DNA of 52,932 bases from a virus (Duplodnaviria; Caudoviricetes), in IMG/VR virus record IMGVR_UViG_3300046170_000229, positions 1-52,932 of that record; one strand, written 5' to 3'. A program made the translations under genes and the position numbers. This document shows, piece after piece, positions 10,784-28,475 of the stretch. The notes beneath the pieces are model-generated. The model saw only the letters and a list, made by a program, of their open reading frames with translations, was not told the DNA's origin and did not search any database. Positions within the stretch are counted from its first letter, which is position 1; every line of letters begins with the position of its first letter.

Positions 10784-11189
10784 TCTTTATGTTCTCCAAC
10801 ACAAATAATTCTTTTAATGGTACTAAAACAAATTTAGATTTTCTATGGTCTCCTCCAAAAACATTTTTATTCTTATATTTTTTTACAAGTTTCTTAACGG
10901 TACTTACTTTAAATACTAAAGTACAGTATTCATCATCACCATCAGTTAAGATATGCATCCAATAATCAGCTTTGGTAACTGATATCCCACTTGGCTTATC
11001 ATAACATTGTATTTCAATTGCAATGTTACCTGTCTTTTGCCACCAATCTCTCTCAGACTTTATCTCAAATTTTTTCTTAAAAAACATATCGTGAAGTTTC
11101 TTTTCACGCATTTGACCAAACTGTAAATCTAAATCAAATTTCTTTAGTGTTTTAATATCACTAGAGTTATTAAAATTATCTTTACTCAT
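10776..11189 (-). CDS. PD-(D/E)xK-like endonuclease
   Basis: FEIKSE..W..TGNIAIE...KPSGISVTKADYW. Confidence 0.6.
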   Translation of the reverse strand: MSKDNFNNSSDIKTLKKFDLDLQFGQMREKKLHDMFFKKKFEIKSERDWWQKTGNIAIEIQCYDKPSGISVTKADYWMHILTDGDDEYCTLVFKVSTVKKLVKKYKNKNVFGGDHRKSKFVLVPLKELFVLENIKNG

Positions 11190-13259: not shown

Positions 13260-15356
13260 TTACAGTTTTATTTCTGTCATGTCAAGCCAATCAGAGCCTA
13301 CTTTTATCTCTATATCTAGAGGTACATTAAAATCAATATTATACATTGATTTCATTGTGTTTTTTACCCCTGTAGTAGATTTAGCTAAGATATCTGACAT
13401 AACATTTTCTTCACCCGGATAGACATCTACAACAATACTGTCATGTACAGTATTAATTAATAGACTTTTTACCTTCTTTTGTTTCATTAACTCATAAGCA
13501 TTAATACAAGCTAAAGGAACAATGTCGGCAGTAGCAAAACCTTGAACAGGATAGTTTTTTATTTGGGTGGAATAATTAGAACTACCCCAAGGCATCCTTT
13601 TCGCATCGGGAAAAGAATATTGCCTACCTGTTGGTAAGGTAACTAGTTTGGTGGCAATCGCACTATACTCTAACTTATCGTGCCACTCTTTAATCTGTTT
13701 ATATTTAGTTAAAAATTCAGCGTAATATTTCTTTTCATCATCTGTACCACTAAAACCTCCATACAAAGGTTTGAAAGTATGAGCCTTAGCATCTTGTCTA
13801 GATACTCCTATGATATCAGCAGTGAATTGATGAACATCAACTCCATTTTTTATATCTTCCATACCTTGTTTATCCTGAGCAAGAAAGACTGCAGTTCTAA
13901 ATTCTAACTGTGCAAAGTCTACCTCCATAATCTTACCATTCTTAAATCTTGATTTCATTACTTTCCTAATAGGGAAAGTTTTAGCACGTGGTTGGTTTTG
14001 GAAATTAGGATTTCTACTAGACAATCTTCCTGTTGAAGTAGCAGTCTGCATAAAGCTAGGATGTAATATAGAGTTCCAACCTACAAAGTTTTGTATACCT
14101 TCAACAAAAGTAGATAAGTAAGTTTCTATAGCACTATACTTTGTAATAGAATCTACAAAATCAATTACTCCATTTTTACTATACTTAGAAATAGTCATTA
14201 AAGTTATTTTATCTGTTTTAAATCCTGTATTACAAGCTAGTCCTACTAACTTACTAGCAGTGTCTTTAGAATCTCTAGAAAAGTTTTCTACAATAGTTTT
14301 AAGGTTAACTTTAAATCCTGCTAATTCTTTTAACTGATGATATATTAAACCCTGACCATCACAAGTCTCACACTTACTTAAATTCTTATAGGGATTACCA
14401 TCAACTTTCATTTTCTGAACTTTACCATTGCCATAACAACTAGAACATCTTTCTGAACGAGTTTTATGAACAGGCTTAGTATACATTTTAACATACTTAT
14501 TAAAGTCTGCTATGGACATTCTAGGTCTTCTCTTAGGTTTATTAGTTTGTTTATTAACACCAATGTTAAAAACCTCAGCCCATTTCTTTTTATTAGTAAC
14601 TTTTAATCCATAGACTAGCCAAGAAAGTTGTTCACCACTACTAGGTTCTATGTGGGTATCTCCCATCATATCCCAAATAGTATCATCTATCTTTACTCGT
14701 AATCGTTTATGCTCTTTTTCAAATTCATCTCTAACTTCAGATAAAGTACTCTTATCAATATAAATACCATTCATCTCCATATTGGTTAATACTTTTGTAA
14801 ATTTGTTCATCATTTTAACTGTAGTTAATAAAGAAGAATTATGTTTCTTATTTAAATCTGATACCTGAGCATCAAAAAGCTGTCGGGTACACTCCACATC
14901 TCTTCTACCATAGAACTCAATATCTTTAGGAATAATATCTTTAAAAGTCATTCCCTGACTTCTATATGTATCAATAATTGAAGTAGCTTTATGTATTAAT
15001 CCTCTTCTTACACAACATTCTGCTAAAGATATTCTAGTTTTAACACCTCGATGTAAAACATATTCAGCTATCATAGTGTCATAAATAATACCAGTATATT
15101 TAAATCCACAAGAATATATCCATGACAAATCAAATTTTATATTATGACCTACAAGAATATCTGTTTTATTCAGTATATCTTGGACAATCTTTTTATTCTT
15201 TTTTAAATCAATATCAGGCAAGTCAGGATGCCAAAAAAATAAATACTCATTATCTATACCTAAACTTATTAATTTATTATCAGGATAGTAAGGAGTAGGG
15301 CTTCCTTTATAACCTTCTTCTGTTGTTTCCACATCAAATACTGTTATCTTTGTCAT
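13260..15356 (-). CDS. polA: Family A DNA polymerase with 3'-5' exonuclease and DnaJ-like zinc-finger insert
   Basis: DVET, GHNIKFD, TGRLSS, DFAQLEFR, RQDAKAHTFKPLYG, KNYPVQG, VHDSI; CSSCYGNG and CETCDGQG. Confidence 0.95.
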   Translation of the reverse strand: MTKITVFDVETTEEGYKGSPTPYYPDNKLISLGIDNEYLFFWHPDLPDIDLKKNKKIVQDILNKTDILVGHNIKFDLSWIYSCGFKYTGIIYDTMIAEYVLHRGVKTRISLAECCVRRGLIHKATSIIDTYRSQGMTFKDIIPKDIEFYGRRDVECTRQLFDAQVSDLNKKHNSSLLTTVKMMNKFTKVLTNMEMNGIYIDKSTLSEVRDEFEKEHKRLRVKIDDTIWDMMGDTHIEPSSGEQLSWLVYGLKVTNKKKWAEVFNIGVNKQTNKPKRRPRMSIADFNKYVKMYTKPVHKTRSERCSSCYGNGKVQKMKVDGNPYKNLSKCETCDGQGLIYHQLKELAGFKVNLKTIVENFSRDSKDTASKLVGLACNTGFKTDKITLMTISKYSKNGVIDFVDSITKYSAIETYLSTFVEGIQNFVGWNSILHPSFMQTATSTGRLSSRNPNFQNQPRAKTFPIRKVMKSRFKNGKIMEVDFAQLEFRTAVFLAQDKQGMEDIKNGVDVHQFTADIIGVSRQDAKAHTFKPLYGGFSGTDDEKKYYAEFLTKYKQIKEWHDKLEYSAIATKLVTLPTGRQYSFPDAKRMPWGSSNYSTQIKNYPVQGFATADIVPLACINAYELMKQKKVKSLLINTVHDSIVVDVYPGEENVMSDILAKSTTGVKNTMKSMYNIDFNVPLDIEIKVGSDWLDMTEIKL

Positions 15357-16588
15357 TCTATATACCTCGATTTCTCAGGCACTAGTATACTATTAACTAT
15401 ACCATGCCATCCATTTATTTTATTCTTTATAACATTTAAGTTTCGCAAAAAGTTTGGTGTATCACCATCTTGTTGGGCTTTACCAATACCAATAATTAAA
15501 TCAGCTTCGGCTGCCTTTCCTGTTCTACTATTCTCCATCATATCAAAAGACAAAACTGCTGAGCCTTCAGCTTCTGCATTTGCCTGAGAGACACCAATCA
15601 AAGCTATATTTCTTCTCTTAGCTATTTCTCTTGCACCTAAGTAGATTGCTCGTAATCTTTCATCACCTCTAGAGAAAGTTCCTTCTACATTTATTTTATC
15701 TAGTTGGTCAACAATAACAATATCAGGTTTATTATCTTCACAATACTTATCTAAAGATTCTAGTGACCAATCTACAGAATCATGGCAAACTATGTTGTCA
15801 CTAATCTTAGCCCACTCTTCTTTTGCTTCTTTCATACTGTCTTGTATATCAAGCTTATGCATATCAGTCCATGCAGATACCATTCTCATCTGTGTTCTAA
15901 CTGCGGGTTCTTCATTAATAAAACAATGAACCTTAGCACCTTGATGAGCAAAGCCTTCGTACCCGGCTACTAGACTAACCCAAAATGCAGTCTTACCTGT
16001 TTCAGGTCTAGCGAATATAACCATAAGATTACCTTCACCTACGCCATCAATTCTATCACCTAATGTTTTTATATTAAACTTCCATTTAGATGTAACTGAT
16101 ACTGCATCTAACATCTCACCAATATCTTTAGTAACAGGAGTTAGCCCATCTTCAGATTCTATTACGTCTTCATCAAATTCTTCCACTAATTTTTTAACAG
16201 TAGATAATGATTTACTTTTACCATTCCAAACACCATTAGCTTCTTCTATAACTTGTTTAGCATGTTCTAGCATACGTAAATTCTTTAACGTATCAGAAAC
16301 AATATCAGCATTATATTCTGTGTTATCATTACCTATGTTGTCTAGTATGGCTTCCATTTTCTGTCGATGAGCAGTAGTGGATGCAGGTTTGTAAATATTA
16401 AAATATGCATCTTTAACTTCTTCAACAGAAAGCTTTTGTATATTATTATGTTTTTTATAGGTATCTCCTATAACAGTGTATACCTCTGCTAAACCATTAG
16501 TAAAATTGTTCTTACTAATCCTTTTTCTATTCTCTTCAAAAAAGTCACGGTTTAGACAGAACTTTATTATTCTATTCTCAAGTGACAT
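15353..16588 (-). CDS. SF4 (DnaB/T7 gp4-like) replicative helicase
   Basis: Walker A ARPETGKT; IVIVDQLD; VSQA; KAAEADLIIG; KNK. Confidence 0.9.
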   Translation of the reverse strand: MSLENRIIKFCLNRDFFEENRKRISKNNFTNGLAEVYTVIGDTYKKHNNIQKLSVEEVKDAYFNIYKPASTTAHRQKMEAILDNIGNDNTEYNADIVSDTLKNLRMLEHAKQVIEEANGVWNGKSKSLSTVKKLVEEFDEDVIESEDGLTPVTKDIGEMLDAVSVTSKWKFNIKTLGDRIDGVGEGNLMVIFARPETGKTAFWVSLVAGYEGFAHQGAKVHCFINEEPAVRTQMRMVSAWTDMHKLDIQDSMKEAKEEWAKISDNIVCHDSVDWSLESLDKYCEDNKPDIVIVDQLDKINVEGTFSRGDERLRAIYLGAREIAKRRNIALIGVSQANAEAEGSAVLSFDMMENSRTGKAAEADLIIGIGKAQQDGDTPNFLRNLNVIKNKINGWHGIVNSILVPEKSRYIE

Positions 16589-17381
16589 TAAATAACTCCT
16601 TTATCCTTGTGGGGTCTAAATATTTTAAGTCTTCTTCTAAGACTTTTACTTCAGTATCAATAAGATACCTCAAGCCTTTTGATAAATCAAATGCCTTCTG
16701 CGTTGCGTCTCTATCTAAAGCTATAATTACTTTCTTAAAGTTTTTAGATAAGTAAATTGCATACTCTTCTTTCATAGTTGTTCCTAATAAGGCAACTCCT
16801 GTGTAGATAGAACTAATAGCACAAGCAGAAGCACAGTCTTCTACAATAACTGCAGTGTCGCTTTTACCACAAGTAAAAGGAATAATGTTTTTATTGTAGT
16901 TGAACCACTTAGGCATGTTAAGGGGATTAAGACTTCTACCTACTGCAGAAACTACATCACCCTCATCTTTAACTACAAAGACTGCTCTATCTTTACGGGG
17001 GTCAAAGTATATTGATGCTATCCCTTCAAGGTATGCCGGGTAACAATTATTTTTCTTAACATAAGACAAACATTTTTCACTAGATTGTATGTTAGTAAAA
17101 TGTTTTGGGATTGTCCAAGCTTTTACTTTCGGTTCAGCCGAGCCTTTTGATGACGATAGTTCCAAGAACTTGGTAACATCATCAGGAGATAATGCTCGTT
17201 CAGTAGTACCACCAATCTTACAAGATGCATGATAGCATCCCCAATTAATTTTAAAGTCTTCTGTGTTTATATAGAATGTATTTTTGTTAAGACAAAAAGG
17301 ACAATCCATTCTAACTCGGGTGTTAGAAGGTATCTCTAACTGTTTGATATATTCTAATTGATGTTTCTTTGTGATGTACAT
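16578..17381 (-). CDS. DNA primase (Zn ribbon + TOPRIM)
   Basis: CPFC...CYHASC; VIVED, ALLGT, ALDRD; AGAAAGG SD places the start at ATG 17381. Confidence 0.88.
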   Translation of the reverse strand: MYITKKHQLEYIKQLEIPSNTRVRMDCPFCLNKNTFYINTEDFKINWGCYHASCKIGGTTERALSPDDVTKFLELSSSKGSAEPKVKAWTIPKHFTNIQSSEKCLSYVKKNNCYPAYLEGIASIYFDPRKDRAVFVVKDEGDVVSAVGRSLNPLNMPKWFNYNKNIIPFTCGKSDTAVIVEDCASACAISSIYTGVALLGTTMKEEYAIYLSKNFKKVIIALDRDATQKAFDLSKGLRYLIDTEVKVLEEDLKYLDPTRIKELFNVT

Positions 17382-17393
17382 TTTTACCTTTCT

Positions 17394-17411
17394 ACTTAAC
17401 ACGTGTTAAGT
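17394..17411. repeat. Palindrome copy 1, ACTTAACACGTGTTAAGT
   Basis: Perfect 18-bp palindrome abutting the primase SD. Confidence 0.95.
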
Positions 17412-17434
17412 TATTTTCTCATTTCTTCAGAGCC

Positions 17435-17466
17435 AAAAAAAGGGGCAGTCATTTCTGACCACCCCT
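17435..17466 (-). terminator. Intrinsic terminator
   Basis: AGGGGTGGTCA-GAAA-TGACTGCCCCT plus T run on the minus strand. Confidence 0.85.
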
Positions 17467-17510
17467 CTCAGCCACAAAGAAAGAAAGTATATGAGTGAAT
17501 ATACTCTTTC

Positions 17511-17538
17511 TTTATAACTTTTTTTTCTTATATTGCAA
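17511..17538 (-). promoter_or_regulatory. Candidate sigma70 promoter TTGCAA-N16-TATAAA
   Basis: Near-consensus boxes; same 16-bp spacer as the other promoters. Confidence 0.5.
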
Positions 17539-17673
17539 GTGCTTTAAATCTTTATCTAAATGTTTTTTTATCAAAGGAAATTGAAAATCTGTTCGATACT
17601 CCCCTTGATGGTATCTTAACAATGACCACAATCTAGGATTAAATTTTTCTAGATATGCTTCAGTATTATTCAT
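17512..17673 (-). CDS. Small hypothetical protein (53 aa, not in ORF track)
   Basis: AGAAAGGAG SD right after palindrome copy 2; MNNTEAYLEKFNPRLWSLLRYHQGEY... Confidence 0.65.
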   Translation of the reverse strand: MNNTEAYLEKFNPRLWSLLRYHQGEYRTDFQFPLIKKHLDKDLKHLQYKKKKL

Positions 17674-17687
17674 GATTACTCCTTTCT

Positions 17688-17705
17688 ACTTAACACGTGT
17701 TATCT
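17688..17705. repeat. Palindrome copy 2 (hybrid arms), ACTTAACACGTGTTATCT
   Basis: 12-bp perfect core TAACACGTGTTA at 17691-17702. Confidence 0.9.
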
Positions 17706-18122
17706 TCAAAAAGTTTTTTGAGGATGTGTACAATGACAAACTGTTATATGTACATTAGTGGTCATGAATCCACTCACGTCAACATCCTCAAAAAATCTTG
17801 TTGGTAGTTTAGCGTCCAAGTCAGGTTCCTGAGGCTTTGCGTCCTTTTGGCTATATCTTGGTTTCTGCATATAATTTTTCAGCAGACCTGCCACTAAACT
17901 AATTTACGTGGGGCAGACTGTACAATCTACCCCAAGGTACTTTGCGTTGCGTTTGAGTTTATACTCGGCTACGAACCCAAGAATACGAAATGGCTTACGC
18001 ACGAGTACCGACAGTGACCATAGACTTACCTATCATTTTGGTAGCTAATTCAAAACTCATCAAGCTTAGTGTAATCGGTTAAAAGAAACATTCAATCGTC
18101 ATCAAATGTTTCTCTAAACCTT
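17706..18122 (-). ncRNA. Candidate large structured ncRNA (about 420 nt), family unknown
   Basis: GC-richer than flanks; nested helices, including 14-bp 17714-27/17782-95, 11-bp 17909-34 with G-U pairs, 17936-47/17997-18009, 9-bp 18084-92/18105-13. Confidence 0.55.
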
Positions 18123-18138
18123 CTTAACACGTGTTAAG
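18123..18138. repeat. Palindrome copy 3, CTTAACACGTGTTAAG
   Basis: Perfect 16-bp palindrome. Confidence 0.95.
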
Positions 18139-18139
18139 T

Positions 18140-18172
18140 AAAAAGGGGTGTCAGATATAGACTAACACCCCT
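18140..18172 (-). terminator. Intrinsic terminator
   Basis: AGGGGTGTTAG..CTGACACCCCT plus TTTT, ending 1 nt from the palindrome. Confidence 0.8.
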
Positions 18173-18222
18173 GTCGGCTTAATTAACAAACAACTCCCGA
18201 AAGGATTTCGGAGTCACTTATA

Positions 18223-18250
18223 ATAATAAACTAATCCCCTGTTAAGTCAA
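18223..18250 (-). promoter_or_regulatory. Candidate sigma70 promoter TTGACT-N16-TATTAT
   Basis: 5/6 and 5/6 consensus; spacer begins TAACAGGG as in the 21674-21701 promoter. Confidence 0.6.
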
Positions 18251-18507
18251 ATCGTAACAGGCTGATTATCTTTTCCTATAACAGTAACATCACCTAATGC
18301 TTCTATCCAAACTTTAGCACCACAGGATAAAGGTTTGTCAGGACTATAGACAATTCTTGTAGCACCATTGCAAACAACATCAGAGCCATAGTAATTATGC
18401 TTGTATGTTTTAACTGTAATAACATCTTTGATGTCATCAGGATGTTTGGCATTGTGTCGAATGTTATGTTGGTTAACATGAATACGTTTAATCAAATGAC
18501 TCTCCAT
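18247..18507 (-). CDS. Conserved phage hypothetical protein
   Basis: RIHVNQH...VITVK...VYSPDKPLSCGAKVWIE; start likely MESH. Confidence 0.75.
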   Translation of the reverse strand: MESHLIKRIHVNQHNIRHNAKHPDDIKDVITVKTYKHNYYGSDVVCNGATRIVYSPDKPLSCGAKVWIEALGDVTVIGKDNQPVTI

Positions 18508-18679
18508 TCTTTTGTAGTACTTCACTAACATCAACTATTGTTCTGTCTATACCTTTTTCATACAAAGGACTAGAATGACCATCCATTAAATAATTATTCT
18601 GTGCCTCTTCTACATCTTTTGCTTTTATGTAATACTTTTTTGTTTTAGTTACCTCAACAACAATTTCATACATAGGCAT
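18488..18679 (-). CDS. Small hypothetical protein
   Basis: AAAGGA SD; TAATG coupling; YEIVVEVT..YYIKAKDVEEA. Confidence 0.7.
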   Translation of the reverse strand: MPMYEIVVEVTKTKKYYIKAKDVEEAQNNYLMDGHSSPLYEKGIDRTIVDVSEVLQKNGESFD

Positions 18680-19014
18680 TAGTTTGTTCCTTTCATGTCA
18701 ACAGTACCTACAAACATTAATCTGTAGTCATCTGTGTTCTCTACTTCAATATGATAAATCATACCCTTAGCTTTGATATATTTAATCGTATTGTAATTAA
18801 TATTTCTATAACCTTTCTTCTGCATATCATAAGCAACTAAAAAATTATTAGGGTTGGTATATTGTCTACCGCCCTTTTGATTTTTCTTTACACCTAGTCT
18901 GAATACACCAGTTCTAAATGTTCCGTCTTTCTTGTAGAAACCTACAGAGAAAGTATTCTGTGTACCTACCATTTCTTTAATAGCTTCAGGCACAGTTAGT
19001 TTTGACATTAACAT
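18679..19014 (-). CDS. SH3/Sm-like beta-barrel protein (WYL_2/DUF2693-like)
   Basis: FSVGFYKKDGTFR...YDMQKKGYRNIN; AGAAAGGA SD. Confidence 0.65.
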   Translation of the reverse strand: MLMSKLTVPEAIKEMVGTQNTFSVGFYKKDGTFRTGVFRLGVKKNQKGGRQYTNPNNFLVAYDMQKKGYRNINYNTIKYIKAKGMIYHIEVENTDDYRLMFVGTVDMKGTN

Positions 19015-19029
19015 ATCGTTCCTTTCTAT

Positions 19030-19047
19030 AGATAACACGTGTTATCT
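19030..19047. repeat. Palindrome copy 4 (variant), AGATAACACGTGTTATCT
   Basis: Perfect 18-bp palindrome with both outer arms changed symmetrically. Confidence 0.92.
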
Positions 19048-19202
19048 CTATGGTTTTAATATCCAATAAGTTATTATTATAGATATAAATATAATCCATT
19101 CTACATCCATAAATTTTTTACGATTTCGCTTTACATATTTTAAAATCCATGATAGAAGGGGTTACCACCCCCGAGGGTATATATACCCCTTTATTATTAT
19201 TC

Positions 19203-19230
19203 ATAATACCATACCCAAAGGGTAAATCAA
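19203..19230 (-). promoter_or_regulatory. Candidate promoter TTGATT-N16-TATTAT with extended -10 TG
   Basis: Same TTGATT -35 and 16-bp spacer as 20604-31 and 21674-701. Confidence 0.5.
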
Positions 19231-19245
19231 ATTTATTACTTTTCA

Positions 19246-19422
19246 TTATTTAGTTTCCTTAGTGTTACTATAATACGTATTAGTTAAAATGTAATTAACT
19301 CTAATACGTTCTCTTTTTCTTTCTCTTTCTTGTTTACTCATTTGAGCCTTACTAAGATTGTATCCTAATAAGGTACTTTCTTTTTTTTCTTTGCGACCTC
19401 TGATTTCAACATCAGATATCAT
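19246..19422 (-). CDS. Small basic hypothetical protein (58 aa, not in ORF track)
   Basis: GAGGT SD; MISDVEIRGRKEKKESTLLGYNLSK... Confidence 0.55.
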   Translation of the reverse strand: MISDVEIRGRKEKKESTLLGYNLSKAQMSKQERERKRERIRVNYILTNTYYSNTKETK

Positions 19423-19624
19423 TGCTTACCTCATCTAAATCATCTTCAACCATAACATGAATGTCTAGTTTATGTTTGTCATAATCTAATCCATATTCAT
19501 CTAACAACATTCTCTTTGCTAAATACTCAGCGTCAGAGAATATATCTCTACTATTACCTGCTACTTTTACTTTGTAGCGAATAGTAAAAGATACTTCTAA
19601 GGGATAATCTTTTTTAAATCCCAT
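19412..19624 (-). CDS. Small hypothetical protein
   Basis: GAGGAG SD; TAATG coupling. Confidence 0.7.
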   Translation of the reverse strand: MGFKKDYPLEVSFTIRYKVKVAGNSRDIFSDAEYLAKRMLLDEYGLDYDKHKLDIHVMVEDDLDEVSNDI

Positions 19625-19794
19625 TACCTACTCCTCTCTTCAAATATTCTATGTACTACATCATAGAACATAGCATCTATAGTTTCTATACCTAAGTCAT
19701 ATTTTTCTACTAGATTAGAAAAGTCAGCCATAGACATACCTTCTAATTCATCTTTAATACTTTCTAGTACTTCTTCATTCTGTTGATTACTCAT
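19624..19794 (-). CDS. Small acidic protein (56 aa, not in ORF track)
   Basis: MSNQQNEEVLESIKDELEGMSMADFSNLVEKYDLG...; fills the gap with overlaps at both ends. Confidence 0.7.
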   Translation of the reverse strand: MSNQQNEEVLESIKDELEGMSMADFSNLVEKYDLGIETIDAMFYDVVHRIFEERSR

Positions 19795-20005
19795 CTACAA
19801 ATAACCCACCTTTGCTTATTCCAAATACTAAATAGTCCTTCATGTATTCCCCATATCTTGAGGATTCATAATCATCATGAGTTATTTGTATTCTTACCGT
19901 CCAATACTTATCTGCATCAACAGATAAAGATTTTTGAATTTGAACACCACTTACATGATGATTTTTAGGTATAACTTTTTTAATATCACGCATTGTTATC
20001 TTCAT
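19787..20005 (-). CDS. Small hypothetical protein
   Basis: GAAAGGA upstream; tight operon packing. Confidence 0.6.
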   Translation of the reverse strand: MKITMRDIKKVIPKNHHVSGVQIQKSLSVDADKYWTVRIQITHDDYESSRYGEYMKDYLVFGISKGGLFVDE

Positions 20006-20171
20006 TCCTTTCTAATAGTGTTGCGTATTGATAATCAACTTCATCTATTTCTAAGTCACCACTAATATCTAGACCACCTTTTTCCTGTAGTATTTTTCTA
20101 GCTTCATCTTCATTTTGTGCTTGTATTTCATAAGTGTATGCACAAGGTACTGCAAATTTAAATGTTGTCAT
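19986..20171 (-). CDS. Small acidic hypothetical protein
   Basis: YEIQAQNEDEA motif resembling 18488..18679. Confidence 0.65.
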   Translation of the reverse strand: MTTFKFAVPCAYTYEIQAQNEDEARKILQEKGGLDISGDLEIDEVDYQYATLLERNEDNNA

Positions 20172-20376
20172 CTTTCTGTTCCTTTTTTAATTGGGTGATT
20201 AACTTTGATAACTCATTATTTGTACCAATAAGATTGTTTACAACATTATTAATATGTTCTTTCTCATTCCTATGAAAATGAGGATGGTGTTGCATCCACG
20301 CATAAGCAATGATATCTGACAAATAATCTTGTGTATCTCTCATTACTTTTCTTGCTTCTTTTAATGTATCAATCAT
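20158..20376 (-). CDS. Small hypothetical protein
   Basis: GAGG SD; ATGA overlap. Confidence 0.65.
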   Translation of the reverse strand: MIDTLKEARKVMRDTQDYLSDIIAYAWMQHHPHFHRNEKEHINNVVNNLIGTNNELSKLITQLKKEQKDDNI

Positions 20377-20564
20377 TTTCCAACCTCAACAAATAATTTA
20401 CCACCTAAATAATTTAAATTATTACTCATGATGTATTCTTTTGCTCTATCAGCTACATCACCCCCTTCAGGAATACAAAAAGGGATTGTAGCTTTACCTA
20501 GTAATTCGTTATCCAAAGCGATAACGTAAATATAACGTACTGTTTTTTCTGATTTTTTAGACAT
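20373..20564 (-). CDS. Small hypothetical protein
   Basis: AGAAAGG SD directly after palindrome copy 5. Confidence 0.7.
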   Translation of the reverse strand: MSKKSEKTVRYIYVIALDNELLGKATIPFCIPEGGDVADRAKEYIMSNNLNYLGGKLFVEVGK

Positions 20565-20576
20565 AATTACCTTTCT

Positions 20577-20592
20577 CTTAACACGTGTTAAG
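20577..20592. repeat. Palindrome copy 5, CTTAACACGTGTTAAG
   Basis: Perfect 16 bp, between promoter and SD. Confidence 0.95.
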
Positions 20593-20603
20593 TATAAGGG
20601 TGC

Positions 20604-20631
20604 ATTATAAAATACACCCTTGCTAAATCAA
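20604..20631 (-). promoter_or_regulatory. Candidate promoter TTGATT-N16-TATAAT
   Basis: Perfect -10; overlapped by inverted repeat 20596-20621. Confidence 0.65.
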
Positions 20632-20633
20632 AT

Positions 20634-21533
20634 TTAAGCTACTTGTAATAAGTTATTCCACTCATTACTACCCAAAGCTTTAGTGATAGATGCTTGTCTA
20701 GTCATCTGATACTTTGGTGTTCTAGCTTTACCATTGAAGTTGTGAGTAGCCCAATGAGTCATGGTGTTGTATAAAGACCATACTGTATTACCCCACCTAT
20801 CCTTCTCTCTTGAGAATAAGTGATTTAAAGTTTCTAATCTTTTCTGATTAACTTTATTGGCAGTATGTTTTGAGCCTCTACACATAGTGTTCTTAAAGAA
20901 GGTACTAGCATAATCTAGTCGAGGTAATTCTTTAACACCCCATGTAGACATTCTATTGGCTTGAAGCAGATAGTTATCTACTAATCTTCCAATATCATTA
21001 ACTAATTCCAAGTCTTGTAAGTTCTTTGTATGCTTACCATAATGTTTGACAAATGCTTTACCATTAAACACTTGTAAGTTGGCACAATAACCACCATAGC
21101 CACCAAAGACAAAGTGAAATGCCATTTTCATATTGTAAGAATTGAAAATATCAAATCTTAAATACTGAAAGTCATCCCCATTCTTTGTAGGAATATGCAC
21201 TTTGTATTGGTCATCTTTACAAACAATAGTTCTCTTTACTAATGCACCACTATCAAACACTTGGTCAGTGACATCAATGTTATTGAACTCACGATAAGAG
21301 TTATCTAGTTCTCTATTGACTGTTTGATACAAGTCTTTGTGATTAAGTAGCTTGTAATTCTTACCTACTATGGCAATTGTTTTCTTTTCATCAGTCCTGA
21401 ATACTGCTCTACCTACTTCTTCAGGTACAGTTCTTACACCTGTATCAGGTCTGTATGTTTGTATTGGTAGTAAGGTCACAGGAAAATCAAATTTCTCTGT
21501 GAGTAGTTTTATCTTTGCTTCGTTGCTTAACAT
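20634..21533 (-). CDS. DUF932/DUF945-family protein
   Basis: VGKNYKLLNH; FNSYN...CANLQ; HTKN; TVWSLYNTMTHWATH; SD places the start at 21533. Confidence 0.8.
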   Translation of the reverse strand: MLSNEAKIKLLTEKFDFPVTLLPIQTYRPDTGVRTVPEEVGRAVFRTDEKKTIAIVGKNYKLLNHKDLYQTVNRELDNSYREFNNIDVTDQVFDSGALVKRTIVCKDDQYKVHIPTKNGDDFQYLRFDIFNSYNMKMAFHFVFGGYGGYCANLQVFNGKAFVKHYGKHTKNLQDLELVNDIGRLVDNYLLQANRMSTWGVKELPRLDYASTFFKNTMCRGSKHTANKVNQKRLETLNHLFSREKDRWGNTVWSLYNTMTHWATHNFNGKARTPKYQMTRQASITKALGSNEWNNLLQVA

Positions 21534-21556
21534 ATATTTACCTTTCTTTGTTAAGA

Positions 21557-21576
21557 TACTTAACACGTGTTAAGTA
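21557..21576. repeat. Palindrome copy 6, TACTTAACACGTGTTAAGTA
   Basis: Perfect 20 bp. Confidence 0.95.
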
Positions 21577-21583
21577 ATTTATT

Positions 21584-21610
21584 AAAGTGGGGAGTTGGTA
21601 GACCCCCCAC
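21584..21610 (-). terminator. Probable intrinsic terminator
   Basis: GTGGGGGGT-CTACCA-ACTCCCCAC-TTT (short U tract). Confidence 0.6.
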
Positions 21611-21673
21611 AACTTATATACACAAACTAATTTCACAAGAGTACTCTCTTGCTACGATTAAATTTGTATTTTA

Positions 21674-21701
21674 ATATTATTGAAAAACCCTGTTAAATCA
21701 A
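21674..21701 (-). promoter_or_regulatory. Candidate promoter TTGATT-N16-TAATAT
   Basis: Shares TTGA(C/T)TTAACAGGG with 18223-50. Confidence 0.5.
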
Positions 21702-21806
21702 GGGGATATTACAATAAATTCAACACTTTTGCATACCTGTTATGTTAGATAAACAATAGTGTCTTCCACCACCAACACTATAATAGTAATTAATGGGGGT
21801 GAAACT

Positions 21807-21989
21807 ATGAATGGCGTATTTACAAATACTAAAAAATCTATTAATTTTTTCCTTAACTGTTTCAGTTTTTTTGATAATTACGAAGACCATGTCAAAAGAT
21901 TTGTTGAAGTCGAATTCAAACCAAATGACAGGCAGTGGGCTTATGAACAGGTCAAAGCTAGAAACATTAGAAAAAAATCTAATAGTTAA
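21807..21989 (+). CDS. Small counter-oriented gene (60 aa) within the early arm
   Basis: GGGGTG SD-like; own TATAAT at 21779-84; converges on 21986..22165. Confidence 0.6.
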   Translation: MNGVFTNTKKSINFFLNCFSFFDNYEDHVKRFVEVEFKPNDRQWAYEQVKARNIRKKSNS

Positions 21990-22165
21990 GAGTTATTAGA
22001 CTTCATGTATTCCTTATTATTTTTATCGGTAATACGTTGGTCTAATAATAATCTAGGCTCGTGTGTTCCATGATAATTAACATTAGATTTAAGAAATACT
22101 TTCTCACCACTACTGTTGATTACATGGCAACCACACCTATAATATAATACTTTTTTATTTTTCAT
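21986..22165 (-). CDS. Small hypothetical protein (59 aa, not in ORF track)
   Basis: AGGAG SD; MKNKKVLYYRCGCHVINSSGEKVF... Confidence 0.6.
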   Translation of the reverse strand: MKNKKVLYYRCGCHVINSSGEKVFLKSNVNYHGTHEPRLLLDQRITDKNNKEYMKSNNS

Positions 22166-22174
22166 AATACTCTC

Positions 22175-22864
22175 CTAATGTGTAATAAATAATACACTCT
22201 TTACTTCCTTATTCCAACAAAGGGTACACGTACCACAACTAGCAGTCTTGCCTAATTGTTCGGGGCAAGTGATACCTTCATCTGTTAACTCTTTACTATT
22301 GGCAGATAACTTATCTTCCACCATATCTGAGAAACGTACAGAAAATCTATCCCACATCTTATCTCTCAAATTCTTTATAGCTTTACCTATATTCCTTTCT
22401 TCTTTCCAACCAATACCCACATTACGAATATCATGATACTGTCTATTCCAATGGTGATGAGTATAGCCATAGCAAGACAGATTAGGAAAAGTCAGTAATG
22501 CCATTCTCCAAAAGTCCACATACTCTACACTAGGAAAGTCACCACCAACATGAAGTCGAACAAGAAAACCTTGTTGATGTTTCTTGTCTAGCTTCATCAG
22601 TTCTTTCCATAGCCTTGTCATCAAAGATTTAGAATACTTAAATCGATGAGCAAAAGGCATGTTATCGTCATAGCAATTCTCCCAATGATAACAACTACTT
22701 GGGCAATTCTTTCTTACTTCTAAATGTAATGTGTAAATAGGCTTACCTTTGTGTCTACCTTTGGTCACCCACTTACCAAGTTTTTTATTGGTGCTACGTT
22801 TTAACAAATCAAACTTGTAGTTCGTTGCACCAAAGACGTTTCGTATATACTTACAACCATTCAT
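22175..22864 (-). CDS. GP88-like (radical-SAM-related, Cys-rich) phage protein
   Basis: TNKKLGK; CPSSCYHWENCY; VRLHVGGDF; YGYT; CPEQ....SCGTCTLCW. Confidence 0.75.
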   Translation of the reverse strand: MNGCKYIRNVFGATNYKFDLLKRSTNKKLGKWVTKGRHKGKPIYTLHLEVRKNCPSSCYHWENCYDDNMPFAHRFKYSKSLMTRLWKELMKLDKKHQQGFLVRLHVGGDFPSVEYVDFWRMALLTFPNLSCYGYTHHHWNRQYHDIRNVGIGWKEERNIGKAIKNLRDKMWDRFSVRFSDMVEDKLSANSKELTDEGITCPEQLGKTASCGTCTLCWNKEVKSVLFITH

Positions 22865-22894
22865 AATAGTTCCTTTCATTGTTATAATAGTATT

Positions 22895-22912
22895 ACTTAA
22901 CACGTGTTAAGT
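22895..22912. repeat. Palindrome copy 7, ACTTAACACGTGTTAAGT
   Basis: Perfect 18 bp, 4 nt after the upstream stop. Confidence 0.95.
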
Positions 22913-22916
22913 CACG

Positions 22917-23423
22917 TCATCTATCTATCTTGTAATAGAAATAGTTTTCTAAATCCTCAAAGAACTGGCATATTGCAAACCAATTCCTAGACAAATAGCT
23001 TCTGTTATCCCATTCTATTTCTGTTCTGCACCCACAAGACAGAGCAAAATATCTTCTTACCTTGTCAATTATACTTCTCTCTTGATATCGGATACCGTTC
23101 CACCACCAAATGTCCTGTATTTCTTTCTGTAACATAGCTGTCCACAACTCAATACTTTCCTTGTCATTTTTTTCTTTAGCTATATCAAGACACTTTTGTC
23201 TATCAGACAACTGTTTTTCTATGGTGTCATGACGAACTTTTACCTTATCTGTTTTTGGCATTTTTGTATCGTCACTGCGATTTAAGTATGTTTTCTGTGC
23301 ATCTTTTAAATCACCTGTCATGGTTATAGCACTCCAAACATTCTCATAATTAAATACATCTTTATGTATCCATAGTCTTATTTTCATAAAGACATAATTT
23401 AAAAAAGTATAAACGTACTTCAT
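22917..23423 (-). CDS. Hypothetical protein
   Basis: 168 aa, Trp-rich, ATGA overlap. Confidence 0.7.
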   Translation of the reverse strand: MKYVYTFLNYVFMKIRLWIHKDVFNYENVWSAITMTGDLKDAQKTYLNRSDDTKMPKTDKVKVRHDTIEKQLSDRQKCLDIAKEKNDKESIELWTAMLQKEIQDIWWWNGIRYQERSIIDKVRRYFALSCGCRTEIEWDNRSYLSRNWFAICQFFEDLENYFYYKIDR

Positions 23424-23677
23424 GCTACTTTTCCTTCCTTGTTTGATACTTTGAATATAAATATGCTTAAAGGTAGAAATCCTGTTTCAAACATACTACC
23501 TTCGAGCATAAGTCCATTATCCATTTTAGATACCAATTCTTTAATATCTTTCTTATTTAATGTAAAAGGTAAAAAACCTACCTTGTTGTAAGTTTCATCA
23601 TAGCTATGAACAAACATAACTTTCTTTGCTCTTCTAAGATGTTCTTGCTTAATAGGTGTCCATTTTAATTTAGTCAT
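23420..23677 (-). CDS. Hypothetical protein
   Basis: Coupled ORF. Confidence 0.65.
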   Translation of the reverse strand: MTKLKWTPIKQEHLRRAKKVMFVHSYDETYNKVGFLPFTLNKKDIKELVSKMDNGLMLEGSMFETGFLPLSIFIFKVSNKEGKVA

Positions 23678-23885
23678 CTAATGCCACCTTTGTTATCTCA
23701 TAACCTCTCCAACGAGGGTGGCTACCTGCTGACCAAAACTCAAGGCTAGACTCAAATTCATCTTGTGCCTCAAAGAAATCTTTTGCACTTATTCTTTCAA
23801 TAATTCTACCAAATGAATCATAGTTCTCATCATCAGGTTTCTGTTTACTCTTAATGCTATATTTAGCTTCACATACAAATATCAT
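23670..23885 (-). CDS. Hypothetical protein
   Basis: AGAAAGGA SD. Confidence 0.7.
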   Translation of the reverse strand: MIFVCEAKYSIKSKQKPDDENYDSFGRIIERISAKDFFEAQDEFESSLEFWSAGSHPRWRGYEITKVALDD

Positions 23886-23923
23886 GTTAATTCCTTTCTT
23901 TGTTTGTGTTGTTATTGTTAATC

Positions 23924-23941
23924 ACTTAACACGTGTTAAGT
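23924..23941. repeat. Palindrome copy 8, ACTTAACACGTGTTAAGT
   Basis: Perfect 18 bp. Confidence 0.95.
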
Positions 23942-23974
23942 AAGGGAGGTTCAAAGGAGGGATAGAGAAATATA

Positions 23975-23988
23975 TAACACGTGTTAAG
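23975..23988. repeat. Palindrome copy 9, TAACACGTGTTAAG
   Basis: 12-bp perfect core, right arm canonical. Confidence 0.9.
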
Positions 23989-24236
23989 CTAAGCAGTCAT
24001 TGTGTTGGAGATAAATACACTAATCGTGCCTAGCATTATAATATCAAAGGTAGTTTCTTAAGTCCAGTCGGATACAGGCTATAAACGTTGATAAATAAGG
24101 ATTGTAGAGGTTTGGAAATGTTTGGAAGTTTTGCCACGATATTCAGAGCAGGTTCGTGAGCAGTTTTGGTTCGTTCCGTTCGTTCGGGTTCAGTCGATAG
24201 TTCCAAAGGAACGATAGTTCCACAGAAATTTTAGAC

Positions 24237-24268
24237 AAAAAAAAACCCCCCAGATTTCTCTGAGGGGT
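24237..24268 (-). terminator. Strong intrinsic terminator
   Basis: ACCCCTCAGA-GAAA-TCTGGGGGGT plus long T run, 19 nt after the ORF stop. Confidence 0.9.
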
Positions 24269-24287
24269 CTTAAGATTTATTGATTAA

Positions 24288-25019
24288 TTATCTGAAGTTT
24301 ACAGTCTTAGGCATTTCGACAATACCTTTCATTTGAGGATTTGGCTCTTCTTCATTTTCTGCAGTTCTTGAATCTACCACACTTTCCAAAGTGTTTAGTA
24401 AATCTGTTAAATCCTCTAAGTCTAGATTTTGTAAAAACTGAGGATTATCTTTTAAATAGTCTAAAGACTCCCTAGCTTTTGATAGAGTGGCTACTTCATT
24501 TTTCTTGGTGTCTCTATTTCTAGTCTTGTTTTTCTTATCCATATCTTTGACAGATAATACATTTTTCTTTGCATCTAAAATTTGAGCAGTTTTTTCATCA
24601 ATGCTAAATTTAGGATTTTCAAAAAGAATTATTGAAGCGTCAATTATTCTTTTCATTGCCATAACAAAAGAGTGTAATTGCTTAGACTTATCATAACCAG
24701 TGAAATGGTAAAGAGCATTTCTTAACTGGTCTTTTGATAGTACTAGATTATTTTTCTTAGCCTCAGTAATCATTTGAACAGTTAATTTAAGTAATGCGAT
24801 TTTTTGAGATACTGATTTTTTTTCCGCATTTTCAAAAGTCTTTATTAATCCCTTACCTACTGAAAAAATTTCAGTCAAAGTCTTTTCAGAATAATAATTT
24901 TTCTGAAGTTCTTTAGGCAATTTTAAAGCTTTTGCCTTTACTGATTTTTTAGCCACTTTTGAAGCATGGCTAGAAGTTGATTTCTTTACAGTCTTTTTAG
25001 TGTTTTTCTTGTTTGTCAT
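24288..25019 (-). CDS. First early gene, monocistronic; Lys-rich N-terminus, function unknown
   Basis: GAAAGGA SD; own terminator; 243 aa. Confidence 0.8.
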   Translation of the reverse strand: MTNKKNTKKTVKKSTSSHASKVAKKSVKAKALKLPKELQKNYYSEKTLTEIFSVGKGLIKTFENAEKKSVSQKIALLKLTVQMITEAKKNNLVLSKDQLRNALYHFTGYDKSKQLHSFVMAMKRIIDASIILFENPKFSIDEKTAQILDAKKNVLSVKDMDKKNKTRNRDTKKNEVATLSKARESLDYLKDNPQFLQNLDLEDLTDLLNTLESVVDSRTAENEEEPNPQMKGIVEMPKTVNFR

Positions 25020-25056
25020 TTTTATATCCTTTCAAAGATATTTGTTAATTAAGAAT

Positions 25057-25084
25057 ATTATGCACTTTTGGGATGTTAATACAA
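25057..25084 (-). promoter_or_regulatory. Candidate promoter TTGTAT-N16-CATAAT
   Basis: Just upstream of the SD of 24288..25019. Confidence 0.45.
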
Positions 25085-25127
25085 ATAAATAATAAGGGTA
25101 ATTTAAGGGCTATAAACAAGGATAATA

Positions 25128-25145
25128 ACTTAACACGTGTTAAGT
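25128..25145. repeat. Palindrome copy 10, ACTTAACACGTGTTAAGT
   Basis: Perfect 18 bp. Confidence 0.95.
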
Positions 25146-25229
25146 AAATCCATATTGAAAGTACATAAGTTATATTTTTTCTCTATCCCTATTAACTCCC
25201 AGTTATAAAACTACTTAAAATATTATTAG

Positions 25230-25245
25230 CTTAACACGTGTTAAG
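25230..25245. repeat. Palindrome copy 11, CTTAACACGTGTTAAG
   Basis: Perfect 16 bp. Confidence 0.95.
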
Positions 25246-25515
25246 TAATTTATTTCTATTAATAATAATTATTTATTTGATTACTGTTTGTTTATTTAAA
25301 AAATATTTATCCTACTGGGAAAATAATTAATAATGCTATAGGGTGTGCAGGTGGTATAGGGGGGTATGTATACTTACATATACGTCAACGTACTAAAAAT
25401 TCAGGATAGGTATTGAAACTACTTTTGGCATGACTTAAGGATGTCCTTAAGGGTATACATTGCGAGTATATTTGAGGGTATTATAGACGTACGTACGGGG
25501 CATAGCCCAATTACT

Positions 25516-25543
25516 ATTATAATACCCTATGCAGTTTTGTCAA
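25516..25543 (-). promoter_or_regulatory. Consensus sigma70 promoter TTGACA-N16-TATAAT (leftward)
   Basis: Both hexamers perfect on the minus strand. Confidence 0.75.
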
Positions 25544-25557
25544 TGATAAAATTTTGT

Positions 25558-25585
25558 TTGACAGAATAGTGACCAACACTATAAT
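25558..25585 (+). promoter_or_regulatory. Consensus sigma70 promoter TTGACA-N16-TATAAT (rightward)
   Basis: Both hexamers perfect; heads the plus-strand arm. Confidence 0.8.
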
Positions 25586-28046: not shown

Positions 28047-28222
28047 TGTCATTTAAATTTGATTCAAAAAAAGCAGACTTAGATAAAAGTGGTGATTTAT
28101 CATCTTATGAAAAAAATAGAGGTATGAAAACACAGAAAGCTATTTTTCTATCTAAAAAAGGTAACGACATATCTAAAAATATGTTTGCTAAAAATAATGG
28201 CAATAGCAAAAAGAATACGTAA
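28046..28222 (+). CDS. Small protein with EF-hand-like loop (58 aa, not in ORF track)
   Basis: ADLDKSGDLSSYE; TAATG coupling. Confidence 0.65.
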   Translation: MSFKFDSKKADLDKSGDLSSYEKNRGMKTQKAIFLSKKGNDISKNMFAKNNGNSKKNT

Positions 28223-28475
28223 TAAATCAACTGGTAGAAATTATAAGAAGGAATATGCTTCTTATCAAGGTAAGCCAAATGTTATTGCTAAAAGAGTTTC
28301 TCGAGATACTGCCCGTAGAACAATGCAAAAACGTGGACTAGTAAAAAAAGGAAGTGGTATGGATGTTGACCACAAGGATGGTAATCCTATGAACAACAGT
28401 AAAACAAACTTACGAGCAGTTAGTAAATTTAAAAATCGTTCCTTTGCTAGGAACAAAAATGGAGGAAAAAAATAA
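28197..28475 (+). CDS. HNH endonuclease-like protein
   Basis: RNYKKEY...DVDHKDGNPMNN..TNLR.....NRS. Confidence 0.8.
   Translation: MAIAKRIRNKSTGRNYKKEYASYQGKPNVIAKRVSRDTARRTMQKRGLVKKGSGMDVDHKDGNPMNNSKTNLRAVSKFKNRSFARNKNGGKK

Follow-up and report, generated by a model that had tools for sequence, protein, structure and literature searches.

What reads a short palindrome that recurs eleven times between the genes of one arm of a phage genome? The question is posed by IMG/VR virus record IMGVR_UViG_3300046170_000229, a phage of the Caudoviricetes whose whole record of 52,932 nt is the stretch analysed here and is called the window below (completeness 94% by CheckV estimate; G+C 33%). To our knowledge, almost nothing is known about the timing of gene expression in SAR11 phages, and their early genes are nearly all unannotated. 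We propose, with belief and doubt about evenly balanced, that the palindromes, built on the core TAACACGTGTTA, serve in double-stranded DNA as operators to which the first early protein of the phage itself, here called P0001, binds as a homodimer, and that together they form a repressive array.

The DNA polymerase of the window (13260-15356, minus strand) shares 54% identity with its counterpart in Pelagibacter phage HTVC033P and 35-39% with the polymerases of HMO-2011 and the CRP roseophages. Because of these identities the phage is classed, on polymerase sequence, as an HMO-2011-type podovirus, and its host is probably SAR11. HMO-2011-type pelagiphages are a group reported as abundant in the ocean. 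A megablast search returned no near-identical phage record for the early arm. Among 53 different open reading frames (ORFs) of the window, a subset scanned against Pfam, PHROGs or both, there was no integrase and no RNA polymerase or sigma-like family, and novel polymerases would escape such scans; an earlier note on this DNA had seen no recognisable repressor or recombinase, which agrees with what these 53 ORFs gave. An ORF of 1389 aa had no match in PHROGs, the sole library used for it.

Eleven palindromes in the spaces of the early arm

Starting at 25019 and ending at 10163, the minus-strand arm carries about 20 small ORFs, followed by primase (16578-17402), helicase and polymerase genes. 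A promoter scan places its consensus sigma-70 promoter (25543-25516) back to back with a plus-strand promoter of the same TTGACA-16-TATAAT form at 25558-25585, and this is the point from which both arms diverge.

The earlier note had counted eleven palindromes, all in the early arm, and an exact search bears this out. The core occurs 11 times in the window, compared with a mean and a maximum of 0 in 100 dinucleotide-preserving shuffles, and no exact copy lies outside 17397-25243 (Table 1). The positions first given were 0-4 nt lower than the core starts, since they marked the extended palindrome, and the longer form then described as usual, the 16-mer CTTAACACGTGTTAAG, is indeed present 8 times. 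Most copies read ACT-TAACACGTGTTA-AGT on the minus strand, and the palindromes are perfect over 12-18 bp. Allowing up to two mismatches raises the count to 16, against 2.89 expected; the five additions (12044, 16132, 19271, 42034 and 49625) each have two mismatches and look like chance matches. Avoidance of a restriction site was ruled out as an explanation: of the 12 CACGTG sequences in the window the palindromes account for 11, and the single one elsewhere compares with about two expected across the whole window.

All eleven copies are fully intergenic under a gene model of the arm in which 26% of bases are non-coding. Seven of them (23927, 22898, 21561, 20579, 19033, 17691 and 17397), the number counted before, are followed on the minus strand by a GAAAGG or AAAGG Shine-Dalgarno sequence and a start codon 4-29 nt past the core. 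An eighth, at 18125, precedes a structured non-coding stretch, and in all 8/11 copies lie no more than 30 nt ahead of a Shine-Dalgarno sequence or this putative non-coding RNA. In addition, terminator-like hairpins can be read by eye 0-25 nt before 4/11 copies, and the terminator scan flags one, 18172-18144.

The palindrome accompanies one phage gene family

The first clue to a partner is the company that the palindrome keeps. The candidate is the ORF at 24288-25019, encoding P0001, which has two palindromes before it and two more after its strong terminator; a phage protein without annotation had been among the partners suggested earlier, and this suggestion is now supported. P0001 has 37 homologues and belongs to no Pfam family, and a profile search with it across 1.8 billion representatives returned 10 proteins, all from the same small family. 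The array was present in 12/12 loci fetched through P0001 homologues (L127 from IMG/VR and 11 metagenome loci, L128-L138), with 9-12 copies in the longest array-bearing sequences, and the proximal copy stands 117.5-124.5 bp ahead of the P0001 start codon in 13/13 array-bearing sequences.

The earlier note had looked to close relatives for an analogous palindrome, and these are divided. The closest isolate, HTVC033P, has no such palindrome and holds plain TTGACA/TATAAT promoters in its early intergenic gaps, whereas many uncultured relatives have it. A motif scan of IMG/VR matched at least 117 stretches; among the matches listed are the close relatives L003/G001 (about 90% identical, 10 copies), L012, L017 and L027, and three more distant HMO-2011-type contigs, G002, G003 and G004, with one copy each. 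The G002 copy is found where the early arm diverges from an ORF of 265 aa, P0002, in the control region that separates them; the arm otherwise uses TTGACA promoters. P0001 and P0002 are unlike by BLAST; their family profiles align (hhalign probability 92%, E 5e-7, 67 columns), and by this profile alignment P0001 is a remote homologue of the P0002 proteins of array-less relatives. The literature searched, in which the supplementary tables of HMO-2011-type phage papers were out of scope, held no description of the motif (AACACGTGTT) or of the P0001/P0002 family.

The P0002 family offers a second view of the site. We fetched 34 IMG/VR loci with P0002 homologues (39-100% identity) and 3 kb on either side, 33 of them with upstream DNA. 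An exact TTAACA-NN-TGTTAA stands 116-206 bp upstream of the P0002-like gene in 23/33 and a one-mismatch version in 2 more, and it is almost always the sole such site in the ±3 kb. The arms are conserved and the centre dinucleotide varies (CG, GC, GG, GA). The single site lies in the divergent spacer, upstream of the gene's own sigma-70 promoter, which begins 25-65 nt past it, and no -10 element stands at promoter spacing on either side. Conversely, five listed members of the at least 117 motif loci (L003, L045, L068, L106 and L047) encode a family member, and the motif adjoins each; L047 is an independent P0002-family homologue with 43% identity. A pattern-limited scan of bacterial and archaeal genomes found no P0002 homologues and no sign of prophage copies.

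An operator for a dimeric protein, one of the options first raised, gained support from this association of TTAACA-N2-TGTTAA with one gene family and from the predicted structure of its product. P0001 is predicted to form a symmetric homodimer, with an interface score (ipSAE) of 0.74 compared with 0.00 for the best control, a contact agreement between runs of at least 88% and a partner pLDDT (predicted local distance difference test) of at least 71. In a calibration set the same mark was reached by 20/30 one-chain pairs and 1/23 single chains, counts that are rough, as our own alignment was used. The predicted chain has a disordered, Lys-rich and conserved N-terminus, a helical bundle (residues 35-137) and a beta hairpin (139-155); read by eye in the model, residues 96-155 could form a wing-like helix-helix-beta-hairpin motif. 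From these observations we infer that P0001 binds the sites.

A side observation concerns the 5' leader of the regulator gene, which holds an inverted repeat, GATTAA-TTTAAAAATATTA...TAATATTGGTTAATC, that by eye is common to G002, L047 and HTVC033P (L139, 2790-2870), with L157 also listed. It may be a second control element.

Palindrome flanks change with the P0001 allele

Flank positions ±7 to ±9 are uniform within a genome and differ between lineages. ACT..AGT flanks occur in the window, G001, L128, L132 and L136; xCC..GGx flanks in L130, L131, L133, L134, L135 and L137; and AGA..TCT flanks in L138. Scans of IMG/VR for the other two flank types gave single copies in unrelated contigs, plus L017 and L027.

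The comparison of the window with L138 is particularly informative. The two are 90.7-99.0% identical at the nucleotide level in six aligned blocks covering both arms, and 20/21 other early-arm ORFs are at least 88.8% identical in amino acids, compared with 38.6% for P0001. The flanks change symmetrically between them, from ACT..AGT to AGA..TCT, and the differences pile up in 20-35-bp patches with small indels around each palindrome, so that identity falls to 108/216 columns within 12 columns of the core as against 1189/1440 at 30-110 columns. In addition, P0001 residues 54, 74, 79, 114 and 116 track the flank type in 12/12 sequences of the two common types, and the mosaic L136 fits this pattern even though its C-terminal half resembles the other group. 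This co-variation of allele and flank, read from the alignments, is a strong suggestion that P0001 is the partner. At the place of window copy 23927, L138 (~11010-11030) has a degenerate ATAACATGTGTTAT with one core mismatch.

Could the host supply the reader instead? A SAR11 DNA-binding protein might read the invariant core, with the flank differences left by neutral gene conversion. Such a factor would suit the identity of the core across lineages whose P0001 alleles differ by 60%, the presence of a related core with repeats in unrelated contigs (L005, L049 and L050) without a family member, and the lack of a recognisable DNA-binding fold in P0001. It would leave unaccounted for that the flank type is homogeneous per genome and switches with the P0001 allele between near-identical genomes, and that a single phage gene family, over 39-100% identity, goes with the site. 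Moreover, 401 sampled alphaproteobacterial genomes gave no multi-copy signal: 57 of them had a match, with a maximum of 4 per genome (taxa unnamed, SAR11 not singled out), and among the matches listed in a 14-mer genome scan were scattered single copies. We therefore regard a host reader as quite improbable.

Two observations from these scans stand apart. In the sampled alphaproteobacterial genome G137, contig C11 has four TTAACATATGTTAA copies about 2 kb apart (121146-127178), which are probably a repeated unit. The unrelated phage contigs L005 (7090-8355), L049 and L050 hold 2-3 intergenic TAACACGTGTTA copies beside A-runs and AATCCAAATCCAAAT repeats; their terminase is about 25% identical to cyanophage terminases, and no P0001/P0002 family member lies within the DNA fetched for them.

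Duplex DNA rather than RNA as the likely substrate

An mRNA hairpin or processing site had also been among the options, and it is the one that lost ground. In this account the element would act as a 7-bp RNA hairpin with an ACGU loop, either bound in a nut-like manner by the basic N-terminus of P0001, which would permit read-through of internal terminators, or marking the transcript for processing or stability immediately 5' of each cistron. The layout of the arm lends it some appeal, as promoter 25543, two palindromes, P0001 and a strong terminator resemble the order pL-nutL-N-tL1 of lambda, the second promoter is likewise followed by two palindromes, and every copy of the array is in DNA transcribed in the sense direction, ahead of the next terminator. 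Of nine single copies folded, six form hairpins more stable than their shuffles (z -1.8 to -3.8). Between lineages the outer stem shows compensatory changes, a 15-bp duplex can form from two adjacent copies (-19.1 kcal/mol, z -5.2), and the Lys-rich, conserved N-terminus of P0001 is predicted to be disordered.

The hairpin itself, however, is weak (about -6 kcal/mol), and where the flanks are hybrid or broken the core stays exact and the stem is lost, so that core-only copies stay unfolded (17691: z -0.9). Four copies directly follow terminators and would be useless as nut-like sites for them. Single-copy loci, G002, G003 and L047 among them, have the site upstream of both flanking promoters, where it is apparently not transcribed at all. 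Finally, the wider family keeps the arms and lets the centre differ, with the asymmetric GG and GA among its forms, which is the pattern of a dimer on a duplex and not that of a recognised loop. Action in RNA thus seems improbable to us. Because the arms are conserved around a free centre, because sites stand upstream of promoters and because the core is kept where the flanks are unpaired (17691), we infer action at the level of DNA; the variable centre dinucleotide in particular would indicate double-stranded DNA read by a dimer.

Does the array block transcription or start it?

If the palindromes are operators for P0001, their history and action might be as follows. The ancestral state would be a single TTAACA-N2-TGTTAA about 120-200 bp upstream of the regulator gene, in a divergent control region, as kept in array-less relatives. 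In the window lineage the regulator gene would have come to head the early arm and the site would have multiplied to the 9-12 copies of the fullest sequences, with a pair ahead of the gene, another pair past its terminator and then one heading nearly every early cassette, between the preceding stop codon or terminator and the next Shine-Dalgarno sequence. The copy at 25131 is presumed to be the ancestral autoregulatory site. The first early transcript, from promoter 25543, would make P0001, and accumulating P0001 would fill all sites and gate host RNA polymerase at each cassette boundary, as a stoperator-like roadblock or by occlusion, giving coordinated repressive control of the early arm. 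We favour a repressive sign because the centre of the tight copies lies about 21-24 nt from the start codon, where a dimer would cover the -10 element and start point or sit just downstream. We also favour it because no polymerase or sigma-like protein was found among the 53 ORFs scanned and because single-copy sites accompany strong consensus promoters at variable distance. The sign of regulation is nevertheless the weak point of this proposal.

The opposite sign has to be taken seriously. Here the palindromes would be phage-specific promoters, or promoter-proximal activator sites, at which host RNA polymerase, guided by P0001 or by some other factor of the phage, would begin transcription inside each copy or immediately past it, in place of the sigma-70 cassette promoters of relatives. 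Indeed, the sites sit where promoters would, past the terminator-like hairpins and close ahead of Shine-Dalgarno sequences or non-coding RNA at the copies counted above. Sense-strand sigma-70 matches of at least 11/12 number 1 in the window, 1 in L133 and 0 in L138, compared with 5 in HTVC033P and 3 in G002, which hold TTGACA promoters in the corresponding gaps. The replication genes follow a strong terminator with only a palindrome between. The T7 and T3 polymerase-promoter pairs offer a precedent for promoter and factor varying together.

Other observations fit this alternative poorly. The scanned ORFs contain no RNA polymerase or sigma-like family and P0001 has no Pfam or PHROG family; its generic helical structure matches include no polymerase or sigma factor, an inconclusive point. 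P0001 is a predicted dimer, unlike sigma factors, and a classical activator centred some 11 nt from the start point cannot work. Single-copy sites lie at variable distance (about -57 to -110 by our count) from strong consensus promoters that should need no activator, and two site pairs of the array lie downstream of sigma-70 promoters. We consider a promoter role possible but unlikely.

A simpler variant, in which TTAACA itself is a sigma-70 -35 element, was rejected. It would put the -10 over the Shine-Dalgarno sequence or start codon at the tight copies, single-copy relatives have no partner -10, and there is no enrichment of -10 or -35 elements just upstream of the array copies.

What RNA evidence there is comes from Logan contigs of four marine RNA-labelled runs (word shares 0.10-0.14). 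These contigs are short and of low depth, show neither RNA ends nor strand and may include DNA carry-over, and they offer weak hints only. Two end 7 nt (19033) and 13 nt (18125) downstream of copies, and depth is highest after copy 18125, in keeping with a promoter; low-depth contigs bridge copies 17397, 22898 and 23927/23975, which speaks against one. Another contig ends at 24031, near the TATAAT at 24040-24035, again a weak hint only.

Several points weigh against the operator proposal as a whole. Pfam and PHROGs reveal no DNA-binding fold or family in P0001 or P0002, Foldseek found no match in the PDB at E<=0.001, BFVD gave none, and the best VIA-align Z scores, 7.4 for P0001 and 5.5 for P0002, are generic helical matches; the protein models are moderate, with a mean pLDDT of 69. 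The link between P0001 and P0002 rests on 67 aligned columns. No exact or one-mismatch site lies at 116-206 bp in 8/33 P0002-like loci, L188 having only a one-mismatch site at 389 bp, and gp84 of HTVC033P, a P0002 homologue (45% identity), lacks an upstream site. Only three flank types exist, and two of the copies adjoin P0001 and are linked to it, so that linkage or gene conversion could lie behind part of the co-variation. As to the repressive sign, the scarcity of consensus-like promoters in array-bearing arms fits a promoter role better, and repression leaves the expression of genes behind the strong terminators at 24271, 18172 and ~17470-17437 unexplained. Immediately ahead of the copies there is no enrichment of promoter-like elements (mean best score 5.6-6.3 vs background 5.9), and the two contig ends just past 19033 and 18125 would fit starts or cuts, although contigs cannot show RNA ends.

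Cassette exchange at the palindromes

The gene-shuffling site proposed in the earlier note also gained support. Alignments to relatives break at 17684/5 and 22917, each beside a copy (17691 and 22898); a third breakpoint, 19186-19190, is about 150 bp from the nearest copy. Hybrid flanks occur at window copy 17691 (AGA..AGT) and at L133 9101 (ACC..AGT), and window copy 19033 has an L138-type flank that was carried along with its cassette. From these alignments, the sites appear to serve also as cassette-exchange joints. The common 12-bp core would provide a short homology for swaps between related phages, and exchange would more plausibly be a side effect of having the same operator repeated.

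Perhaps, instead, exchange is all there is, and the palindromes are joints for recombination, whether selfish or structural (short mobile patches or hot spots of template switching), kept because they promote cassette exchange and devoid of any regulatory role. The breakpoints, the hybrid flanks and the cassette with the other lineage's flank type would all be expected, as would the confinement of divergence to 20-35-bp patches with small indels, and the PeSL (promoter early stem-loop) motifs of T4-like phages, as part of PMC4122927 describes them, are a precedent for exchange at conserved intergenic motifs. This would explain neither the fixed single site upstream of the regulator gene in 23/33 array-less loci nor the invariant 12-bp core and the tracking of the P0001 allele by uniform flanks, and we give it only a very slight chance.

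Comparison with known systems

Among known systems, the stoperators of cluster A mycobacteriophages come closest. They are described in part of PMC9283540 as 20-30 near-identical short sites in short intergenic spaces and at a promoter, bound by one phage protein and proposed to stop both initiation and elongation of transcription. In PMC6550527, cluster A repressors and their site motif diverge together between lineages. The palindromes are similarly numerous and intergenic (11/11 here, 9-12 copies in the fullest relatives), and their flanks co-vary with the allele of the candidate protein, the near-isogenic pair included; with only three types, this likeness is suggestive. Stoperators differ in being asymmetric 13-mers that bind a helix-turn-helix (HTH) monomer, depend on orientation and occur in both arms of temperate phages, whereas here the sites are perfect palindromes with a predicted homodimer without recognisable HTH, lie in the early arm only and come with no integrase among the scanned ORFs. 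The asymmetric, orientation-bound 13-bp site is absent, and the candidate is a predicted dimer rather than a monomer. As for a repressor of the L5 gp71 type, with its N-terminal HTH, Pfam and PHROGs gave P0001 no functional family and fold searches gave generic helical matches only; P0001 was not directly compared with gp71.

KorB and KorA of the IncP plasmid RK2 are, in the part of PMC11790492 that treats them, dimeric regulators with multiple identical palindromic operators (OB and OA), some far from promoters. The likeness lies in a dimeric regulator (here predicted) of a mobile genome with palindromic sites at varied positions. KorB is a ParB-family sliding clamp dependent on cytidine triphosphate and acts on a plasmid, whereas the scans of P0001 show no such family, the phage is apparently lytic and the operators are unrelated. 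The OB sites of RK2 number 12.

The PeSL cassettes of T4-like phages, according to PMC4122927, are small intergenic terminator and promoter motifs that flank variable early genes and act as exchange points. The window resembles them in the terminator-like hairpins before 4/11 copies and in the breakpoints and hybrid flanks at copies, with replacements bounded by the motif at 17684/5 and 22917 and another about 150 bp off. A PeSL holds an ordinary host-type early promoter joined to a stem-loop terminator. That composite is absent here: hairpins precede only the 4/11 copies, most copies have no sigma-70 promoter (mean best score 5.6 vs background 5.9) and the unit is a palindrome tied to a regulator gene.

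Lambda N and nut follow the order promoter, site, regulator gene, terminator, and lambdoid regulator alleles swap with their sites. The same order is seen here, and allele and sites swap together between similar phages. The nut element is an RNA with an asymmetric loop, whereas here the evidence favours duplex DNA; lambdoid operators cluster at two promoters, whereas the palindromes are dispersed, one per cassette. In Cluster K mycobacteriophages, start-associated sequences (SAS) and their extended partners (ESAS) are a repeated motif right upstream of the ribosome-binding site in some genes, and we know of no protein partner for SAS. The palindromes share this position in a subset of genes. 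SAS are asymmetric and include the ribosome-binding site, whereas here the distance to the Shine-Dalgarno sequence varies over 4-29 nt and three copies are far from any.

The general kind is already known: one regulator with many dispersed identical operators that double as exchange points, as in stoperators, KorB/OB and PeSLs. What is new is the family of proteins, the occurrence of palindromic sites of the dimer type in a marine phage that is apparently lytic, and the visible growth of one site to about eleven with flanks matched to the allele.

Implications for early gene control in marine phages

The analysis pairs a conserved cis site, TTAACA-N2-TGTTAA, with a conserved unannotated gene across many uncultured HMO-2011-type phages, and makes visible a natural expansion from one site to about eleven. 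The near-isogenic allele swap between the window and L138 predicts that binding specificity lies at two base pairs per half-site, a regulator-operator code that can be tested directly without phage culture. In addition, repeated identical operators offer a concrete mechanism for cassette shuffling in a hypervariable early region.

It is tempting to go further, and to speculate that P0001 and P0002 represent a new fold family of sequence-specific DNA-binding regulators in HMO-2011-type pelagiphages, and that in one lineage the family has given rise to a master factor whose allele-matched operators define specificity groups among near-identical lytic phages, an idea that we consider unlikely. 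If it were true, P0001 would act on the early arm of some co-infecting relatives and not of others, an immunity- or exclusion-like incompatibility without lysogeny, and early cassettes would be shuffled by crossing over at these very sites. A bolder form of the idea has the dimer take over promoter recognition altogether, the palindromes then being true phage-specific promoters for the host core polymerase.

Features of the arm and its surroundings

The coordinates of the array, of the candidate gene and of the transcription signals are collected in Table 1.

Table 1. Palindrome copies, candidate regulator gene and transcription signals in the early arm of the window.
Feature	Coordinates	Strand	Description
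Palindrome copy 1	17397..17408		ACT-core-AGT; about 25 nt past terminator-like hairpin; primase Shine-Dalgarno 5 nt after core
Palindrome copy 2	17691..17702		Hybrid flanks AGA-core-AGT; Shine-Dalgarno 5 nt downstream; breakpoint vs four relatives at 17684/17685
Palindrome copy 3	18125..18136		Abuts terminator 18172-18144; followed by structured non-coding stretch, no ORF
Palindrome copy 4	19033..19044		AGA-core-TCT (L138 type); homologous to L138 copy 16076; Shine-Dalgarno 7 nt downstream
Palindrome copy 5	20579..20590		Sole copy with good sigma-70-like promoter just upstream (TTGATT-16-TATAAT, 20631-20604); Shine-Dalgarno 4 nt downstream
Palindrome copy 6	21561..21572		After G+C-rich hairpin with T-run; Shine-Dalgarno of DUF932 gene 15 nt downstream
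Palindrome copy 7	22898..22909		8 nt past stop of ORF 22917-23423; Shine-Dalgarno 21 nt downstream; G001 breakpoint 22917
Palindrome copy 8	23927..23938		Second of pair 48 bp apart; Shine-Dalgarno 29 nt downstream
Palindrome copy 9	23975..23986		First of pair; about 45 nt downstream of predicted start of TATAAT promoter 24040-24035
Palindrome copy 10	25131..25142		Centre 117.5 bp upstream of P0001 start codon
Palindrome copy 11	25232..25243		101 bp upstream of copy 10
P0001	24288..25019	minus	First early gene, 243 aa; candidate site-binding regulator
Consensus sigma-70 promoter	25516..25543	minus	TTGACA-16-TATAAT into early arm; sole sense-strand match of at least 11/12 in small-gene arm
Intrinsic terminator	24242..24271	minus	Strong, directly after P0001; 13-pair stem then T-run
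Probable second promoter	24034..24066	minus	TATAAT 24040-24035; upstream of palindrome pair 23975/23927
Intrinsic terminator	18144..18172	minus	Abuts palindrome copy 3

Some neighbouring features deserve mention. Directly after copy 18125, the minus strand of 17700-18124 holds about 425 nt without a convincing ORF, with a minimum free energy of -121.8 kcal/mol (z -4.6 vs shuffles); contigs of two RNA-labelled runs reach their greatest depth there (29.7 and 59.2). The stretch, which G001, L133 and L138 also preserve, may be a phage non-coding RNA. Rfam gave no match in the window at gathering thresholds and two sub-threshold chance matches in 17650-18250, and ARAGORN found no tRNA. Just upstream, a promoter-like TTGACT-16-TATTAT at 18223-18250 (minus), common to the window, L133 and L138, is followed by hairpins or terminators at 18212-18196 and 18172-18144, and could give a transcript of about 70 nt ending just ahead of copy 18125.

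Some 200 nt of leader with a raised G+C content (25300-25515, minus) separate the consensus promoter 25543 from the first palindrome; in G002 (15790-16200) a comparable consensus promoter leads into non-coding, G+C-rich DNA that extends for about 450 nt beside P0002. An early G002 ORF (18521-18913, plus), which we take by eye to resemble the C-terminal domain of RNA polymerase alpha (RAKNCLRN...VGDLV; unconfirmed), is without counterpart in the window. Immediately past the P0001 terminator, a cluster of GGAAC/GAACG repeats, ggaactatcgttcctttggaactatcg...gaacgaacggaacgaacc (24150-24240, minus), is partly kept in L138 and could be another binding array or an origin. Finally, among the small genes of the plus strand, ORF 28185-28475 encodes an HNH_3 endonuclease domain (E 1.8e-7), and the adjacent ORF 28475-29221 is 50% identical to its L138 counterpart in surroundings that are 98-100% identical.

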